Virus record (IMG/VR): IMGVR_UViG_2609460344_000017
From: a virus
Lineage: Duplodnaviria; Heunggongvirae; Uroviricota; Caudoviricetes
Strand: one strand, 5' to 3'
Length of the DNA: 7,501 bases
The position numbers were made by a program, and so were the translations under genes. A model generated the notes under the pieces. It made no database searches and was not told where the DNA came from. It saw only the letters and a program-made list of their open reading frames with translations. Positions within the stretch are counted from its first letter, which is position 1. Each line of letters starts with the position of its first letter. Below, in pieces: positions 1-6,734 of the stretch.

Positions 1-396
1 GCTCCCTTTCCGGCACGTCTCATTGCCGTATCACTTCCTCCCGAAAAAGCATTAATCAGTAAAACCCGACTGCTCAGCGAGAATCGTCGAAAAGGACGAG
101 TAGTTCAGGCGGAAACGCTGGAAGCAGCGGGCCATGTGCTATTGCTAACATCATTACCGGAAGATGAATATTCAGCAGAGCAAGTGGCTGATTGTTACCG
201 TCTGCGATGGCAAATTGAACTGGCTTTTAAGCGGCTCAAAAGTTTGCTGCACCTGGATGCTTTGCGTGCAAAGGAACCTGAACTCGCGAAAGCGTGGATA
301 TTTGCTAATCTACTCGCCGCATTTTTAATTGACGACATAATCCAGCCATCGCTGGATTCCCCCCCCAGAAGTGCCGGATCCGAAAAGAAGAACTAA
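1..396 (+). CDS. insL: IS4-family DDE transposase (IS186 InsL-like), C-terminal ~131 codons; 5' end cut by the window edge
   Basis: Frame 1 has no stop from base 1 to TAA at 394-396. The translation carries the IS4-family YREK signature Y-x2-R-x3-E-x6-K (YRLRWQIELAFKRLK). The C-terminus ...PRSAGSEKKN matches what I recall of InsL. Confidence 0.85.
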   Translation, partial: APFPARLIAVSLPPEKALISKTRLLSENRRKGRVVQAETLEAAGHVLLLTSLPEDEYSAEQVADCYRLRWQIELAFKRLKSLLHLDALRAKEPELAKAWIFANLLAAFLIDDIIQPSLDSPPRSAGSEKKN

Positions 397-589: not shown

Positions 590-745
590 TTACTCCTCAG
601 GTTCGTAAGCTGTGAAGACAGCGACCTCCGTCTGGCCGGTTCGGATTCGTACCTCGCAGAGGTCTTTCCTCGTTACCAGTGCCGTCACTATGACGGTTAA
701 ACAGATGACGATCAGGGCGATTAACATCGCCTTTTGCTGCTTCAT
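590..745 (-). CDS. hokD: Hok/Gef family type I toxin (51 aa), HokD/HokC-like
   Basis: ATG at 745-743, stop at 592-590. Translation MKQQKAMLIALIVICLTVIVTALVTRKDLCEVRIRTGQTEVAVFTAYEPEE has a single transmembrane helix and the conserved RKDLCEV...TGQTEVAVF core of Hok/Gef proteins. An AAGGAGAAG ribosome-binding site lies upstream. The paralog assignment is from memory and uncertain; the family call is firm. Confidence 0.88.
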   Translation of the reverse strand: MKQQKAMLIALIVICLTVIVTALVTRKDLCEVRIRTGQTEVAVFTAYEPEE

Positions 746-802
746 AGCCTGCTTCTCCTTGCCTTTCGGCACGTAAGAGGCTAACCTACATGTGCAAAGC
801 AT
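590..802 (-). CDS. mok-like leader reading frame (70 aa) in frame with and ending at the hok stop
   Basis: In-frame ATG at 802-800, 19 codons upstream of the hok start. This matches the way chromosomal mok frames are annotated in E. coli hok loci (recalled, not searched). In this family mok translation is required for hok translation and is the target of sok. Confidence 0.55.
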   Translation of the reverse strand: MLCTCRLASYVPKGKEKQAMKQQKAMLIALIVICLTVIVTALVTRKDLCEVRIRTGQTEVAVFTAYEPEE

Positions 803-1302: not shown

Positions 1303-2400
1303 ATGACAATTTCATATATTCCTATTCTGAAAGCGAAACGTTCTGAGTTATCAGCTTTATCGCAGCTATCCATTGAAAAGAAATCAAAAATTTTGCCATT
1401 ACTCGAAATTGAACCAGTGCCAATTGACCCTGATTCAGGTATTGCCTTAAAGAGTTATAACGAGACTCTTATAGAGTTCGGAAAGAAAGTCTCAAAATCT
1501 TGCTCAGATATGCAAGGTGTTTATATTGATGGATTATTAATTGAAGAGCATTTTATTTCTCCTGAAGATCATTACCCTATAATAAATGCGGTTAATCAAG
1601 TTAGAGATATGGGGATAAGAGTTATTCCTGTCAGTTCACCAACTCGCCCATCTAACTATAAAAGAGCGATTGATGAATTAATGCAGAATGAAATATGCTT
1701 GAGATTAACCACGTTAGATCTGGTTAACCCACAATTAATAACGCATTACATTAATCATCTGGGAATTCCTTTATCAAATATTGATATAATTATTGACTTA
1801 AGAGATGAGTTAACCGAGGATAAAATTAATTCCGGCGAACTATATACTTTGGCAATGGGATTGATAAACAATCTGGCGCACCTCAATGAATACAGAAAAG
1901 TGATTCTTTCTGGGGGTTCATTTCCTACAGATCTCAGTGATATTTCTGTTGGTCTATATTCTCAACCTCGAATCGAGTGGATTTTATGGCAGAGTTTAAT
2001 GAATAGAAAAGAACTTGCCAGAAATGTGATTTATAGTGATTATGGAGTACAGCACCCCGACTTTAATAGGCTTTCGACGCGATTCCCTAGCGTATCTGCC
2101 AGCGTCAGATACTCTGGAGATAATGACTTTTGGGTATTTCGAGGAAGAGTAGCTAATCGCTTTGGTTATGAACAATATGGTAAACATAGTGAGGATATTC
2201 TTGCTCATCGAGAATATTCAGGGCCTACATTCTGTGCGGGAGATAGAGACATAGAATATTATGCAAACGAGTATCAAGCCTACAAAGCCAATCCCTCTGG
2301 TAACTATAAATTTGGTAGCCCAGAGGTATGGCGTAGGATTGGGCAAAACCATCACATAACTAAGGTTGTTGAGCAACTCGCCACTCTTTACGGGCTTTAA
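1303..2400 (+). CDS. Hypothetical 365-aa protein in an AT-rich island; possibly Beta-protein (PF14350) / sce7725-like, unverified
   Basis: ATG at 1303 with AAGG ribosome-binding site 7 nt upstream; uninterrupted 1098-nt ORF. AT-rich codon usage distinct from the flanks. No Walker, HxH, HEPN or other catalytic motif recognised. The N-terminus MTISYIPILKAKRSELSAL reminds me of Beta-family proteins (recollection only). Confidence 0.8.
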   Translation: MTISYIPILKAKRSELSALSQLSIEKKSKILPLLEIEPVPIDPDSGIALKSYNETLIEFGKKVSKSCSDMQGVYIDGLLIEEHFISPEDHYPIINAVNQVRDMGIRVIPVSSPTRPSNYKRAIDELMQNEICLRLTTLDLVNPQLITHYINHLGIPLSNIDIIIDLRDELTEDKINSGELYTLAMGLINNLAHLNEYRKVILSGGSFPTDLSDISVGLYSQPRIEWILWQSLMNRKELARNVIYSDYGVQHPDFNRLSTRFPSVSASVRYSGDNDFWVFRGRVANRFGYEQYGKHSEDILAHREYSGPTFCAGDRDIEYYANEYQAYKANPSGNYKFGSPEVWRRIGQNHHITKVVEQLATLYGL

Positions 2401-2938
2401 GTTTAACTCGAACAGCTTCACGAAGCTCGCCAACATCCATACTATTGGCGAGTTTTGACCATAAGACGCGTTTAGGTTTATTTTTCAAATTCTGTAGCTC
2501 CCCTACATCACTTAATAGGGAAAGCAATTCATCTTTCCAAAGAAGCATTGTTAAGGAAAGTTTGTCCACTTGTGGATTCAACTTGCTAGTTCGAATTGTT
2601 TTTAAATGGATACCTTGCCGTGCACCTTGCGTAACTTGCTTTATCCCCCACCATGATGGAACTATGCTTAAAGCATCATAAAGATGGCAATCAGAGACAA
2701 CCAAAGTTACTTTATCCATCACTGATGAGTAATGTTGCACCTGCGCTGGTAATCTGAGCAAGTTATCACTCTTGCTCTTCAACTCATAACCATGTATAAG
2801 CCCATTGATCACTGCTATATCAGCTCTGCTAGCCCCTAGATTCATCGTAAACTCATCAATGATTAGGGTGTCAGGATCTTTATGATGATCTCTCAGAATC
2901 TTGGCATGCACAGCCTTTCTTACATCAATGTCTCTCAT
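2360..2938 (-). CDS. 192-aa PD-(D/E)xK-type (RecB/restriction-like) nuclease-fold protein; possibly sce7726-like, unverified
   Basis: ATG at 2938-2936, stop at 2362-2360. Translation contains IIDEF ... SRADIAVINGLIHGYELKS, i.e. acidic residue, then hydrophobic-strand Asp, then E-x-K about 12 residues later, the classic PD-(D/E)xK arrangement. The ribosome-binding site is weak. Its 3' end overlaps the 3' end of the 365-aa gene by 41 bp. Confidence 0.75.
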   Translation of the reverse strand: MRDIDVRKAVHAKILRDHHKDPDTLIIDEFTMNLGASRADIAVINGLIHGYELKSKSDNLLRLPAQVQHYSSVMDKVTLVVSDCHLYDALSIVPSWWGIKQVTQGARQGIHLKTIRTSKLNPQVDKLSLTMLLWKDELLSLLSDVGELQNLKNKPKRVLWSKLANSMDVGELREAVRVKLKARKEWRVAQQP

Positions 2939-3243: not shown

Positions 3244-3555
3244 TTATGCTTCGGCCTTATTTCTCAGCCATACACAAACCGGGCCATCTTCGGTGTCATG
3301 TATTGAACCAATAAACCATCCATTGCCCTCTGGTCGTTCCGGTTCCCATGCAGAAATATCAGCATCACACGCATCAAGGTCAGCACATCCTTCATCTCTG
3401 AAGCAGAGGACGTATTGAAGATTATTTTCCTCCATCCAGGCGTTAAACTCTTCCGTTGAAATATATTCCCGACCGTCACAGAATTTTTCATATTCAGGAT
3501 GCGTCCAGCAGCCATATTCATCACGTACTACTGGTATTTCTTTAATTTCATTCAT
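3244..3555 (-). CDS. Hypothetical prophage protein (103 aa, acidic, Trp/Cys-containing)
   Basis: ATG at 3555-3553 with GGGAGA ribosome-binding site 7 nt upstream. Overlaps the stop of the upstream gene by 8 bp, suggesting translational coupling. Last gene of the minus-strand early operon. Confidence 0.7.
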   Translation of the reverse strand: MNEIKEIPVVRDEYGCWTHPEYEKFCDGREYISTEEFNAWMEENNLQYVLCFRDEGCADLDACDADISAWEPERPEGNGWFIGSIHDTEDGPVCVWLRNKAEA

Positions 3556-3802
3556 TTCTGTTCTCCCACGTTTTCAGACTTTCACCACAGAACGGACAAA
3601 ATGAAACCCGAACTGGTAATTTAGAAAATTCACCGGAACGCAACATCACAAAATCAGGACCGCGAGTTAAACTCTCATTCCAGATTTTGTATATCAGCAG
3701 ACCTTTTCGCATCGTGTATTCAGCATCATGCTCAAGGGACTTTGCCAGTGCTGCACATGGTTCTATCTTGTTGCCATTAACCTGGCATTTTGATTCACTC
3801 AC
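3548..3802 (-). CDS. Hypothetical prophage protein (84 aa) with one CPFC motif
   Basis: GTG start at 3802-3800 preceded by a strong GAGGAGG ribosome-binding site at 7 nt. The start overlaps the TGA stop of the upstream gene (GTGA). Confidence 0.65.
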   Translation of the reverse strand: MSESKCQVNGNKIEPCAALAKSLEHDAEYTMRKGLLIYKIWNESLTRGPDFVMLRSGEFSKLPVRVSFCPFCGESLKTWENRNE

Positions 3803-4221
3803 CGCACCACCTCCTCAAAATTCCCCTGATAAAACGCCAGTACGCGCTGCATAACTTCGCTCTTCCGGCACTCGAGACAGATTATGTTCAGACGCCTGTC
3901 GTAGCGGCGTATTTCGCCATCTGGTAATGACCAGATAAGGTCCGGATCAACCGCAGATGGTTTCTTCAGCTTTGCCCTTGAGAGTTTTTTGCGGGCATTT
4001 TGCCAGTCTTTACGAGCCTGTTCAGACGGGAATAACCCGTAGCCAGAATTGTATACATCGCCACTGGCAACCAGCTCTCTGGCCAGAACGCTCATCAGAT
4101 ATCTTGTTGCCCCAGTTTTAGTTTCCAGTTGTCGTAACGTCTCGCGCCCACTCTGGCGTACGAGTTCAACAACCTGCCCTTTAATTTTTTCCCGCTCTTC
4201 TTGTGTAAAAACTTTTGCCAC
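3799..4221 (-). CDS. Hypothetical prophage protein (140 aa, basic)
   Basis: GTG start at 4221-4219 preceded by AGGAGG at 4 nt. Lies 37 bp downstream of the replication gene stop; in an operon with the two following genes. Confidence 0.65.
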   Translation of the reverse strand: MAKVFTQEEREKIKGQVVELVRQSGRETLRQLETKTGATRYLMSVLARELVASGDVYNSGYGLFPSEQARKDWQNARKKLSRAKLKKPSAVDPDLIWSLPDGEIRRYDRRLNIICLECRKSEVMQRVLAFYQGNFEEVVR

Positions 4222-4258
4222 AAGCCCTCCTGAAAATTACCCCATGACCTGAAATCTG

Positions 4259-5329
4259 TTACCCTCTGAATCCCGGCGGAATTTCGGTGTCCGGTTCAGA
4301 AATATGATTAACACAACGCTGGTTGTTCGTGCCGCTTACCGGGAGCAACCAGGGGTTTTCAAAATTCCGGTCCGGTCCAAAAAACGTCGTCGCTCGCTGA
4401 ACAAATTCCGTTCCCGTTTTCCCGGTAGCCGCCAAGTATCTTGCGTAACGCCTCACGCCATCCAGCATGGCCTCTGGTGGCACCCCCTCGCGTAATCTGG
4501 CCTTCCAGGCACTGAAAGCGGATTTCTTCGGGTTTGCCCCAGCACGCAACGGGTACTCCCGCCAGACCTGTTCGAACACATCCGGATAATCCACTCGTCC
4601 CACAGACTGCCCGGTGTTTTCCGGGACTACCCGATCGGCTTCCCGCTGAATGGCGGAATCGGCTTCGGGCTGCTGCAGTTGGTGTGATTGCTCCGGCCTT
4701 GCGGTCATCACCTGCTGCACAGCGCCCGAATCGGCTTTCAGCGCATACGCTGAATCGGCTTCCGGTGTCGTGCCTGCTGGCTGACCAAGATTGACGGTCT
4801 GAACATCCCCTGCCTGGTTCGTGGCGTTTTTTACGCCATGGACCATAGTGTTTTGATCTTCTTGATCTGTATCTTTATCTGTATCTTTATCTGTCGTGAC
4901 TCGTCGTGACATGTGCGTGACATTTCGTGACGCGCCGTGACAATCGCCATTTTGTTCCCGCTTTCTTTCCCTCTCTCGCTGCGCCCTCTTGCGCTCTGCA
5001 GGAGATTTTGCGGTTTGCGAAATATTGCCGTTGTCCTCTTTAAGCACCTGGCGTTTTTCCCATCCAGTGATTAAATCACCATCAAGTACCCGCCCCTGCA
5101 TCGTCTGCAAAATTGAATCAATTACCTCTTCTGTCACGTCGAGCGCACTTGCCAAATCTTCTGTCGTGACATCAATGTGACCTCGCGTGACATTTCGTGA
5201 CGCGCTCACCAGGAGGTGGATATACACTGCCATCACTGTTGCAATTGGCTGCCCTGACACCCTGGCAATTGTTCGCCACTTAGGGTCATTTGGCATGTCA
5301 TGCCATAATCTGAGCCAGGCGTTAGCCAT
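4259..5329 (-). CDS. Phage replication initiation / replisome-organizer protein (lambda O-like architecture), 356 aa
   Basis: ATG at 5329-5327 preceded by AGAGGTGA; an alternative in-frame GTG is at 5335. N-terminal domain, a charged low-complexity linker (TDKDTDKDTDQED, ERKRAQRERERKRE) and a C-terminal domain ending ...FEQVWREYP...KKSAFSAWKARL, which resembles conserved phage replication-protein C-termini. Iteron arrays sit inside the gene. Confidence 0.8.
   Translation of the reverse strand: MANAWLRLWHDMPNDPKWRTIARVSGQPIATVMAVYIHLLVSASRNVTRGHIDVTTEDLASALDVTEEVIDSILQTMQGRVLDGDLITGWEKRQVLKEDNGNISQTAKSPAERKRAQRERERKREQNGDCHGASRNVTHMSRRVTTDKDTDKDTDQEDQNTMVHGVKNATNQAGDVQTVNLGQPAGTTPEADSAYALKADSGAVQQVMTARPEQSHQLQQPEADSAIQREADRVVPENTGQSVGRVDYPDVFEQVWREYPLRAGANPKKSAFSAWKARLREGVPPEAMLDGVRRYARYLAATGKTGTEFVQRATTFFGPDRNFENPWLLPVSGTNNQRCVNHISEPDTEIPPGFRG
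4864..4894. repeat. AT-rich tandem repeat (GTATCTTTATCT x2 plus partial copies) adjacent to the iterons
   Basis: Exact 12-mer at 4869-4880 and 4881-4892. Encodes the TDKDTDKD linker on the minus strand. Candidate DNA-unwinding element. Confidence 0.5.
4891..4941. repeat. Iteron array 1: five tandem 10/11-bp repeats with core CGTGAC (candidate ori)
   Basis: CGTGAC at 4895, 4905, 4916, 4926 and 4936, giving a helical-turn spacing of 10-11 bp, inside the replication gene. Confidence 0.6.
5161..5201. repeat. Iteron array 2: four 10/11-bp repeats with core (C/T)GTGAC
   Basis: Cores at 5165, 5176, 5186 and 5196, plus an inverted copy GTCACG at 5133-5138. Shares exact segments CTGTCGTGAC and CATTTCGTGACGCGC with array 1. 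Confidence 0.5.
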
Positions 5330-5400
5330 ACTCACCTCTTTTGATACCGAATCTTTTTACTCACAAATTGCCGGAAGTGATCCGGTATGAATATTGCGAG

Positions 5401-5826
5401 TCAATGCACAGCCACAATATTTCCTGCAGGGCCACCACGATTCATCTGGTTGAAACCAGCGATCGCCACTGCGACAAAATCATCAGCGTCTCTCACCAGT
5501 CGTTCCCGCGTCTCCACCAGCTCCCGAAAATAAGCTGAACTGTGGCTGCGCATTCTGGCCACCAGCAAAGGTGGCATTGCCTTTTCGATCGCTGGTAACA
5601 ACGCCTGAATTTTTTCAACTGCATCAGGGGTGTCTTTCTCTACCCAGCGGAAAATTTTCTGGGTATTGCGAGCCAGGGCTTCCGGATGGCTGTCGTCATA
5701 CAGTTCTGGGAACGTCATACCCAACTCAAAATAAGCCTGGGTTATTCCAGCTGCTGGAACTTTCTCACCATCAGGATATGCCCAGGCATTCATCGCCATG
5801 CGGATGTGCTCATGTTTGATTTTCAT
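5401..5826 (-). CDS. ydaT: YdaT-like protein (Rac prophage ydaT homolog), 141 aa
   Basis: ATG at 5826-5824 with AAGAGG ribosome-binding site. Size, sequence (MKIKHEHIRMAMNAWAYPDGEK...) and position immediately downstream of a ydaS-like gene match Rac prophage YdaT as I recall it. Confidence 0.8.
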   Translation of the reverse strand: MKIKHEHIRMAMNAWAYPDGEKVPAAGITQAYFELGMTFPELYDDSHPEALARNTQKIFRWVEKDTPDAVEKIQALLPAIEKAMPPLLVARMRSHSSAYFRELVETRERLVRDADDFVAVAIAGFNQMNRGGPAGNIVAVH

Positions 5827-6133
5827 GAATCATTTGCCTCTTGATGCTTCGGGTATGATCGTTTTCGTCATTTGGTTGCTTCATCGACATATTCTGCGAA
5901 TAACATGACGAGCGTCGTAAGTATGTCCAATCAACATCAGGACGAAGTTCTTCACACAGGACACCACCTTTTGTTGCTCGTTCAATCGCAGGACATCTCT
6001 CAGCAGGCAACTGACGTACACCTTTGATCCATTGATTTACGCTTGGAGGAGATACACCTAAAAGCCTAGCCATTGCTGATTGCCCACCGACAACAGCACA
6101 AGCTCGTTTGAATGAATAGTTATCTTTTTTCAT
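5810..6133 (-). CDS. ydaS: YdaS-like Cro-type helix-turn-helix protein, 107 aa
   Basis: Preferred start is ATG at 6133-6131 with GGAG about 10 nt upstream; the ORF track's upstream start at 6154 lacks a ribosome-binding site. Helix-turn-helix region AMARLLGVSPPSVNQWIKG. Divergent from the repressor gene. Overlaps the ydaT-like start by 17 bp. Confidence 0.8.
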   Translation of the reverse strand: MKKDNYSFKRACAVVGGQSAMARLLGVSPPSVNQWIKGVRQLPAERCPAIERATKGGVLCEELRPDVDWTYLRRSSCYSQNMSMKQPNDENDHTRSIKRQMIHENQT

Positions 6134-6160
6134 CGAATGAACTCCAAAAAACACACAATA

Positions 6161-6228
6161 ATATTAGGCTTAGCCTAATGCGATTGTCAATAGGCTATGC
6201 CTAACGCTTCGAGAGTAGGGATTGCCTA
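6161..6228. promoter_or_regulatory. OR-like tripartite operator with a PR-like promoter for ydaS-ydaT, between the divergent racR-like and ydaS-like genes
   Basis: Three inverted repeats of the form TAGGC-N3-GCCTA: 6164-6178 (TTAGGC-TTA-GCCTAA, perfect), 6191-6203 (perfect 5-bp arms) and 6216-6228 (4 of 5). Centres are 25-26 bp apart. A minus-strand promoter, -35 TTGACA (reverse complement of 6185-6190) and -10 TAATAT (reverse complement of 6161-6166), overlaps site 1. Confidence 0.55.
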
Positions 6229-6257
6229 ACGCGATGCGCATAGGAGACTATTAAGCA

Positions 6258-6734
6258 ATGCTTAGTGGTAAAGACTTAGGCCGAGCGATAGAGCAGGCCA
6301 TCAACAAAAAAATTGCATCAGGAGCCGTCAAATCAAAGGCGGAAATCGCACGTCATTTCAAAGTCCAACCACCATCAATCCATGACTGGATTAAGAAAGG
6401 TTCGATAAGTAAAGACAAACTTCCAGAACTATGGCGTTTCTTTTCTGATGTGGTTGGTCCAGAGCATTGGGGGCTTAACGAATACCCCATACCAACCCCA
6501 TCCACTTCAGATACAAAAAGTGAACTTTTAGACATAAACAGCCTTTATCAAGCCGCCTCTGATGAAAAAAGAGCAATTGTGGCTTTCCTCTTATCTGGAA
6601 ATGCTACGGAGCCTAGTTGGGTTGATCATGACGTTCGCGCCTACATTGCCGCAATGGAAATGAAGGTAGCTAACTATCTGAAAAATCAAGAATCAAAACG
6701 GAAAAGCCAGAACATCACCAAGACAGGAACTTAA
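6258..6734 (+). CDS. racR: RacR-like prophage repressor (XRE-type helix-turn-helix), 158 aa
   Basis: ATG at 6258 with TAGGAGA ribosome-binding site 10 nt upstream. Helix-turn-helix region SKAEIARHFKVQPPSIHDWIKKG. Divergent from ydaS-ydaT, as in the Rac immunity region. Confidence 0.8.
   Translation: MLSGKDLGRAIEQAINKKIASGAVKSKAEIARHFKVQPPSIHDWIKKGSISKDKLPELWRFFSDVVGPEHWGLNEYPIPTPSTSDTKSELLDINSLYQAASDEKRAIVAFLLSGNATEPSWVDHDVRAYIAAMEMKVANYLKNQESKRKSQNITKTGT

Follow-up and report, generated by a model that had tools for sequence, protein, structure and literature searches.

Why should the gene of a phage replication initiator carry, within its own coding sequence, two separate arrays of one short DNA motif? 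The question is raised by a stretch of 7,501 nucleotides (nt), here called the window, from the IMG/VR virus record IMGVR_UViG_2609460344_000017 (Caudoviricetes), in which an initiator gene of the 'phage replisome organizer' type holds repeats of the core GTCACG (CGTGAC on the plus strand) at two places. Array 1, or the linker array, sits in the linker-coding part of the gene, between the N-domain and the C-domain; array 2 sits in codons of the N-terminal DNA-binding domain and, the gene being on the minus strand, is the upstream or N-terminal array. By sequence comparison we regard it as established that these are two cis-acting elements with one common, co-evolving specificity, both inside the initiator gene. 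Both are very probably selected binding sites of a single factor, most likely the initiator. The reading that we prefer as a whole, and to which we assign a probability of roughly 0.5, is that array 2 is a second maintained initiator-binding array and the accessory half of a bipartite intragenic origin; the positive, origin-assisting role that this would give to array 2 specifically is tentative, and its chances fall a little short of even.

Two arrays of one core in the initiator gene

The first-pass annotation, made from the letters of the window, had reported a second iteron cluster about 270 base pairs (bp) from array 1. This was confirmed, in that CGTGAC occurs nine times in the window where 2.03 copies are expected, a count reached in none of 200 shuffles, and all nine copies fall in two clusters within the initiator gene (Table 1). 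The five cores of array 1 start at 4895, 4905, 4916, 4926 and 4936 (plus-strand coordinates), with spacings of 10, 11, 10 and 10 nt, and array 2 has perfect cores, read as GTCACG on the minus strand, at 5165–5170, 5186–5191 and 5196–5201, with a spacing of 10/11 nt. Four cores had been placed between 5165 and 5201; three of them are perfect as described, and the fourth, at 5176–5181, is a one-mismatch copy (TGTGAC on the plus strand). The exact segments said to be common to both arrays proved to be unique, CTGTCGTGAC occurring at 4891 and 5161 and CATTTCGTGACGCGC at 4921 and 5191 and both nowhere else, and in fact longer than described, the full matches being TCTGTCGTGAC, of 11 nt, and GCGTGACATTTCGTGACGCGC, of 21 nt; in each pair the copies are exactly 270 nt apart, which equals 90 codons and keeps the reading frame. 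In the 46 kb genome of the near-identical phage Tritos these two clusters of GTCACG are the only ones, and there is therefore no distant second site of the kind represented by SPP1 oriR or P4 crr.

Directly downstream of array 1 lies an AT-rich tract, which is a candidate DNA-unwinding element, in the region where the GC content of the gene is lowest (0.33–0.35 at 4840–4899), and this tract is adjoined by a palindrome. Array 1, taken together with the tract and the palindrome, looks like an intragenic origin of the lambda type and is the candidate core origin. The earlier description of a replication initiator gene with an intragenic iteron origin is supported. A single core in inverted orientation lies on the array-1 side of array 2, in codons for a turn between two predicted helices.

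Selection on the DNA of the arrays

A codon alignment of 25 distinct genes of the GTCACG type was used to follow the synonymous positions of both arrays. The codons of array 2 were found to be nearly fixed, S44 being TCA in 23 of 24 genes, V47 GTC in 25 of 25, T48 ACG in 25 of 25, G50 GGT in 24 of 24, H51 CAC in 24 of 24, V54 GTC in 25 of 25 and T55 ACG in 24 of 25. The valine of the inverted core, V65, is GTG in 22 of 22 homologs, and within the AT-rich tract D147 is GAT in 23 of 23 and K148 is AAA in 19 of 20. Normalised codon entropy was accordingly 0.15 for array 2 compared with 0.83 outside (Mann-Whitney p = 4e-7), and 0.18 (p = 3e-6) for array 1 together with the AT-rich tract. Invariant residues outside the arrays (R7, L8, P13, T20, V32, G79 and R93) have entropies of 1.6–2.5 bits, and the invariant residues that flank array 2 use 4–6 codons. 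Judged by this alignment, the synonymous sites of array 2 are under strong purifying selection at the DNA level.

An internal repeat in the protein had also been pointed out, and the two peptides are indeed present, SRNVTRGHIDVTT at residues 46–58 and SRNVTHMSRRVTT at residues 134–146 (in the numbering of the listed 358-residue open reading frame). It could be argued that this repeat was selected as a peptide motif (SRNVT...VTT) needed twice by the protein and that the DNA repeat is incidental; the peptide similarity is real, and A43, S44, R49 and G50 are invariant in homologs. However, the repeat unit measures 10–11 nt, which is no multiple of three, and the cores of array 2 start at gene positions 129, 139, 149 and 160, in all three codon phases, one DNA motif being translated as S-R, V-T, G-H and V-T. 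As the cores are read in three frames, the repeat unit is therefore the DNA, and the peptide repeat, although present, is a by-product of it without meaning of its own. The frozen synonymous positions also speak against selection on the peptide, as do the quite different peptides of lineages with other cores (NASANATER/QTNANER and TATQGNADATRGN/CNARQRNATLGN). Moreover, the region accepts insertions of 7 to ~30 residues, and in a low-confidence AlphaFold2 model the predicted local distance difference test (pLDDT) score falls below 50 at residues 47–52; the model puts residues 43–55 at a helix end and in the loop preceding the helix-turn-helix and hairpin, a position that is, on weak evidence, compatible with a tolerant loop. 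With three reading frames, frozen synonymous sites and divergent peptides, a protein-level repeat was rejected, and we consider it very improbable.

Occurrence of both arrays among homologs

Homologs and their DNA were gathered by tblastn on phage records and by a scan of one genome per GTDB species; a scan of IMG/VR returned 80 loci that were all 100% identical in the N-domain, and the diversity was taken from the GTDB scan instead. In 75 loci we determined the best 6-mer common to the N-terminal and linker slots, taking as score the smaller of its two counts. A score of at least 3 was obtained in 34 of these 75 homologous loci, nearly all from different species, and a score of at least 2 in 51, compared with 1 and 190, respectively, of 2704 control window pairs taken elsewhere in the same loci, and with 0 and 37 of 1500 codon-shuffled genes. 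A separate count that used five fixed 5-mer cores and required at least three cores in each slot found both arrays in 45 loci, namely 42 species-representative genomes and 3 phage genomes. The gammaproteobacterial hosts with two arrays include Escherichia/Shigella, Rahnella, Serratia, Pantoea, Erwinia, Enterobacter, Pseudomonas, Gilvimarinus and several Xanthomonadales, and the betaproteobacterial hosts include Aquitalea, Chromobacterium, Bordetella, Acidovorax, Cupriavidus and Burkholderia. For the Alphaproteobacteria Sphingomonas (L123) and Sphingobium (L125) it was the 6-mer test alone that showed a core common to both slots, the N slot having two copies. Among phages, Aeromonas phage pAEv1818 and Pseudomonas phage P7869, whose N-domains are ~70% identical to that of the window, carry GTCACG at both places together with the inverted core; a Manatee Spring phage (48% identical) carries CGAACGC at both places and Ralstonia phage Hennie (38% identical) GCAACG, the latter with inverted copies after its N-terminal array. 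No clear two-array pattern was seen in the cyanophage homologs Cy-LDV1, Mwe-JY25 and MACPNOA1.

The distance from the last core of the N array to the first core of the linker array ranges from 138 to 319 nt in homologs, with a mode of 227–229 nt. The linker array occurs in most homologs, distant ones without array 2 included, and is followed by an A/purine-rich tract in every lineage. Across the loci compared, it is the linker array that is the more widely conserved element, the N-terminal array being an accessory in many lineages. In Xanthomonadales prophages L133, L136, L137 and L139 the N-terminal GTCACG array lies ~40–50 nt further upstream than elsewhere in the family (gene nt 87–107), a placement suggesting that the accessory array may have arisen or moved more than once. 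Two further prophages, from Serratia (L124) and Pantoea (L129), differ in their C-terminal part and lack an N-terminal array; what they contain is two clusters of CTACG/CGTAG repeats further downstream, at gene nt 326–372 and 643–696.

Concerted change of the core in both arrays

Five core types were distinguished, GTCACG, GTAACG, GTGACG, GCAACG and CGAACG, and each of them is found in both arrays of its own lineage. The change from one type to another can be followed most clearly in a trio of loci with N-domains that are 74–78% identical, one from Erwinia (L111) with the core GTCAC and two, from Pantoea (L109) and Enterobacter (L112), with the core GTAAC. The core change falls at identical gene positions, 160, 181 and 224 in the N array and 412, 422 and 451 in the linker array, and the inverted cores at 175 and 214 read GTGAC in the Erwinia and Pantoea loci and GTTAC in the Enterobacter locus. 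As aligned here, both arrays show the same one-base switch of specificity at each of these sites. In the Ralstonia/Burkholderia lineages GCAACGTTGC stands at the place of the inverted core and co-varies with the array core. The N-terminal array also varies in size, from 3 to ~10 cores among lineages, and longer arrays lengthen a loop of the protein. That of Escherichia albertii (L089) has six cores and is longer than that of the window by 21 nt (two cores, seven codons, 'TCHGVSL'), the same 21-nt insertion being found in proteins P0060, P0091 and P0110, and in Pseudomonas loci L162 and L164 the array comprises eight to ten cores and the encoded loop is ~30 residues longer.

These data bear directly on the suggestion, made when the window was first annotated, that the ori segment had been duplicated within the gene or had undergone a recent rearrangement. 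Had part of this gene recently been duplicated or converted, with no function attached, the exact matches of 11 and 21 nt, 270 nt apart and in frame, would be accounted for, yet both arrays are present in the 45 beta- and gammaproteobacterial loci and, more weakly, in alphaproteobacterial ones, and neither the strong purifying selection on synonymous sites nor a core switch copied into both arrays fits such an event. Alignment with homologs had been proposed as a way of seeing whether one array is an insertion, and array 2 is not one relative to relatives without the array: the segment is of equal length with and without the four-core array (ASRNVTRGHIDVTTEDL here compared with ASISEERGEVTITKEDI in the low-GC locus L113), and the AS and RG residues that flank array 2 are invariant throughout the family. 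Recent segmental duplication was rejected on the grounds that both copies are widespread, the segment length is equal and the synonymous sites are frozen, and it now seems to us barely credible. Of the possibilities originally raised, two binding sites for the same protein is the best reading, on evidence that is indirect but strong, namely the concerted change of the cores and the near-zero synonymous variation in the 25 genes.

Possible roles of the N-terminal array

We infer, as the natural reading, that both arrays are read by the initiator's own N-terminal domain, because the locus offers no other DNA-binding module that obviously co-evolves, and that a DNA loop lets the arrays act together in a positive sense. 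A core origin of the lambda/SPP1 type, in the interdomain linker, would be made up of array 1 with the AT-rich tract and palindrome, and array 2 with the inverted core, ~230 bp upstream, would provide an auxiliary loading site as the accessory half of the origin. Initiator molecules would bind the 6-bp cores, which are one helical turn apart, and would thereby all lie along the same side of the double helix; the oligomer on one array would then contact that on the other, looping out the ~190–230 bp in between. Looping would stabilise the initiation complex; by this complex the AT-rich tract beyond array 1 would be opened, and the DnaT/DnaD-like C-terminal domain would recruit a host or phage helicase.

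Several observations weigh against this bipartite arrangement. Array 2 has no strongly AT-rich neighbour, the local GC minimum being just 0.375 at 5100–5139. Helical phasing between the arrays, suggestive over all loci (Rayleigh R of 0.43), disappears once every spacing counts a single time (0.19 over the 21 unique spacings), so that its conservation is not demonstrable and it does not discriminate between the possible roles. The AlphaFold2 model of the protein, calculated from a 16-sequence alignment, is of low confidence, with a mean pLDDT of 47.7 and a predicted template modelling score (pTM) of 0.28. In the distant WFRWHHG clade (Massilia, Variovorax, Acidovorax and others) the linker array and the purine-rich tract are present and the N-terminal array is not, and three low-GC members of the close clade (L113, L115 and L122) have array remnants only, the N-terminal array being absent. 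The N-terminal array is thus dispensable in evolution, which suits a modulatory role at least as well as a role in the origin core.

One such modulatory role would be that of an autoregulatory site, at which bound initiator blocks the elongating RNA polymerase, or bridges to array 1, and so limits its own synthesis. Extra or inverted iterons are often used for Rep autoregulation in iteron plasmids, for example pSC101 and R6K. The array is within the first 170 nt of the gene, it is evolutionarily optional, as a modulator would be, and head-to-head pairs of cores, as is typical of dimer operators, occur in many lineages (GTCACGTGAC in L002, GCAACGTTGC in L004/L161 and GTAACGTTAC in L109/L112). 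Classical autoregulatory operators, however, are not placed as array 2 is, away from the promoter. When the region 4200–6300 was scanned, the counts of promoters and terminators were at the shuffle expectation; the single good promoter-like site on the gene strand is at 6190–6161, upstream of the cro-like gene, and a weak plus-strand 'promoter' at 4917–4944 consists of the iterons themselves. Transcription of the initiator gene, as read from this arrangement, starts at an early promoter some way off and passes through the cro-like and cII-like genes first. In addition, a roadblock inside coding sequence would be uncommon, and an equal roadblock would be given by the linker array, so that a second array is not obviously needed. 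Given the distance of array 2 from any promoter and the strict likeness in which the two arrays are kept, we favour the role as an accessory to the origin over autoregulation of the promoter type; autoregulation by array 2 we judge to be unlikely.

It is also conceivable that array 2 exerts negative control or forms a barrier, by titrating the initiator, by handcuffing with array 1 or with sister copies, or by stalling a fork or helicase that is heading towards the immunity region. Control arrays and handcuffing are known from P1 incA, F incC and the three-iteron cluster of RK2, and the layout of array 2, apart from the AT-rich tract and evolutionarily optional, is compatible with that of an iteron control array. 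Of the two arrays, which share one specificity, one lies beside the unwinding element and the other does not, and the copy number of the N array, at 3 to ~10, varies as in plasmid control arrays. The replisome organizer of SPP1 binds a second site that may stall forks (PMC3485210), a barrier of the kind proposed for G38P at oriR. On the other hand, a lytic or induced phage would gain little by limiting its copy number, and the arrays are merely ~230 bp apart on one molecule; a negative or barrier function is accordingly improbable in our estimation.

Should array 2 work as one half of the origin, or as its regulator, the minimal ori of the widespread Rac-like/lambdoid prophages would exceed what the lambda paradigm suggests. 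If it is functional, part of the DNA-binding domain of the initiator is under a dual constraint, as protein and as DNA, and a change of replication specificity, and hence of incompatibility between co-resident prophages, calls for about ten sites, spread over two arrays, to change in a coordinated way; in the Erwinia/Pantoea/Enterobacter trio such a change appears to be captured in progress. The repetition of one short core in two slots of the initiator gene also provides a simple rule for finding the origins of such prophages in silico. It is possible, though we would not call it likely, that throughout a large family of proteobacterial prophages the initiator binds the very stretch of DNA from which its binding domain is translated, the bipartite origin being wholly within the initiator coding sequence, and that a surface loop of this domain is carried along in evolution by changes in iteron copy number (3 to ~10) and by specificity switches. 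Were such a self-coded bipartite origin to be true, the matched sets of protein variants and cores (GTCACG, GTAACG, GTGACG, GCAACG and CGAACG) would be a natural series for the winged-helix recognition code, and the same series would allow an initiator and its dual-coded sites to be followed as they change specificity in step.

The initiator gene and its module

The list of open reading frames gives the initiator as 4259–5335 on the minus strand, with 358 residues and a GTG start at 5335. The start codon is probably the ATG at 5329, which is preferred because a Shine-Dalgarno sequence (AAGAGGTGA) is immediately 5' of it and homologs begin with MANAW or MANSW. Against the PHROG profiles the protein matched phrog_3729, 'replication initiation protein', with E = 6.8e-258, its C-terminal half matched phrog_1701, 'DnaD-like helicase loader' (3e-63), and primosomal-protein PHROGs, and its N-terminal 125 residues gave weak matches to 'replisome organizer' families such as phrog_4880 (4e-6). 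At the default thresholds of Pfam the initiator had no match, Phage_rep_org_N and helix-turn-helix domains being found below threshold only. The match to PF09681 (Phage_rep_org_N) was below the curated cut-off, with 12.7 bits compared with 23.3, as was that to TIGR01714, with 15.4 bits compared with 49.8, and the sub-threshold alignment of this type covers the entire model (7–124 versus 1–118). Any relation to the SPP1 G38P-type organizer family (PF09681/TIGR01714) would be distant at best. A search of Pfam at E values up to 10 gave no lambda O-family match, and a sequence search of the PDB with a profile of the N-domain returned nothing meaningful, the top hit being CHRAC-14 at E = 0.011.

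The NCBI name of the protein is 'phage replisome organizer', and in RefSeq it is often labelled just 'hypothetical protein'. The gene is 98–99% identical in phages Tritos, Evi and vB_EcoS-689R5; in Tritos, Evi and other phages it carries the annotation replication protein O or replisome organiser, and it is present at a coverage of at least 80% in 1647 of 5426 complete Escherichia coli genomes. From its neighbours (Table 1), the gene is seen to occupy the position of lambda O in a Rac-type RacR/YdaS/YdaT immunity and replication module. Neither in the window (3244–4221, minus strand) nor in Tritos (L165, 33216–33638) is the initiator gene followed by one for a helicase or helicase loader, the next gene being DUF977/Ren-like; in Aeromonas, Pseudomonas and Ralstonia phages with homologous initiators DnaC-like or DnaB-like genes come next. 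This arrangement points to a module that consists of the initiator alone, host DnaB and DnaC being brought in by the DnaT/DnaD-like C-terminal domain.

Table 1. Features of the initiator locus, in window coordinates
Feature	Position	Strand	Description or basis
Replication initiator gene ('phage replisome organizer' type)	4259..5329	-	PHROG matches, gene context and phage annotations
Initiator domains			N-terminal DNA-binding (~residues 1–125), then disordered linker, C-terminal DnaT/DnaD-like
Array 2 (N-terminal array)	5165–5201	-	Four cores, one degenerate; encodes A43–T55 (from ATG)
Inverted single core	5133–5138	+	26 nt from array 2, array-1 side; encodes D64-V65-T66
Spacer between inverted core and array 1	4942..5132	-	~190 bp; rest of predicted winged-helix domain and basic KRAQRERERKRE stretch
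Array 1 (linker array)	4895–4941	-	Five perfect cores; encodes C130–T145 (from ATG)
AT-rich tract	4860..4895		Three 12-nt repeats (GATAAAGATACA type, gene orientation)
Palindrome	4815..4845		13-bp stem, 5-nt loop
RacR-like repressor	6258–6734	+	Profile matches
YdaS/Cro-like gene	5810–6133	-	Profile matches
YdaT/CII-like gene	5401–5826	-	Profile matches; initiator follows directly
DUF977/Ren-like gene	3799–4221	-	Profile matches; next after initiator

A third repeat lies within the initiator gene, a 36-nt direct repeat (4634–4669 and 4730–4765, 75% identical) that gives the variable linker a repeated peptide, EADSA. The region contains GAATCGGCTT at 4656, 4728 and 4752 and ATCGGCTT at 4634, a motif count barely above chance (3 compared with 0.57 expected, with 3 reached in 4 of 200 shuffles).

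Other features of the prophage segment

Outside the replication module, the window contains a convergent pair of genes that overlap by 41 nt. The first (1303–2400, plus strand) encodes a 'Beta protein' (PF14350, 3.8e-52) that matches the PADLOC model PD-Lambda-2_C (1.8e-41), and the second (2360–2938, minus strand) encodes a protein of the sce7726 family (NF033832, 1.7e-56) that matches the PADLOC model 'cll' (2.4e-28); the pair is probably anti-phage defence cargo of the prophage. A small open reading frame at 590–802 (minus strand) is of the Hok/Gef toxin type (MKQQKAMLIALIVICLTVIVTALVTRKDLCEV...), and in phage Tritos a gene annotated as HokD toxin is found a few kb downstream of the initiator gene. 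At 136–396 (plus strand) an open reading frame resembles the C-terminal fragment of an insertion sequence transposase (…YRLRWQIELAFKRLKSLLHLD…), which suggests an insertion sequence remnant at the edge of the prophage segment.

Comparison with known replication origins

In phage lambda the iterons of ori, followed by an AT-rich tract, lie inside the initiator gene O, and added iterons lengthen the protein (PMC7466680). The locus described here resembles lambda ori and its six-iteron variants in Shiga toxin (Stx) phages in that the candidate origin is located mid-gene, in the linker, with direct repeats and then an AT-rich tract; as in lambda, a palindrome comes after the AT-rich tract and the gene is placed after cro and cII-type genes. 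The palindrome at 4815–4845 recalls the one to the right of lambda ori. Extra iterons lengthen the protein, as they do in lambda and the Stx variants (PMC7466680). The initiator, however, has no detectable kinship to O, and its 6-bp cores at a spacing of 10–11 nt differ from the 18–19-bp iterons of lambda with their internal dyad symmetry. Lambda also lacks a second array in the codons of the DNA-binding domain, which is conserved in many lineages here, and within this window, unlike in lambda, no P-type helicase loader gene follows the initiator.

In SPP1, repeats (AB boxes) and an AT-rich unwinding element are embedded as oriL in gene 38, and G38P, a replisome organizer that is not an AAA+ protein, binds two discrete sites of the genome (PMC5737612). 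The two systems are alike in having origin repeats beside an AT-rich element inside the organizer's own gene. They differ in that the second site of SPP1, oriR, is located elsewhere in the genome, outside gene 38 and ~30 kb from oriL, whereas here the arrays are ~230 bp apart in one gene, and in that the similarity of the present initiator to Phage_rep_org_N is below threshold.

Bipartite or split sets of initiator sites are known from the oriC regions of Bacillus subtilis and Helicobacter pylori, which flank dnaA, from P4 (ori and crr), from RK2 oriV with its 5+3 iterons, from P1 (incC/incA) and from the SaPI ori with two sets of hexamer iterons. In origins with two clusters, one cluster adjoins the unwinding element and the other is distant, and looping or handcuffing is the usual explanation. 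The present locus is similar in having two clusters for one initiator, one of which adjoins a candidate unwinding element, and the feature expected of a bipartite origin, that its two clusters share one recognition sequence and are conserved together, was found in 45 loci with five co-varying cores. It is dissimilar in that the clusters of those systems flank the initiator gene or lie outside it and here both are in coding sequence. No description of a second intragenic array was found in the searchable literature, the coverage of which is incomplete, especially for older work in subscription journals, and no published description of the origin of this initiator gene was found there. An intragenic origin in which repeats are followed by an AT-rich tract is already known from lambda, Stx phages and SPP1, as are split sets of initiator sites; what distinguishes the locus described here is that both halves are intragenic and that one half coincides with codons for the DNA-binding domain itself, under a dual coding constraint and with concerted switches of specificity.

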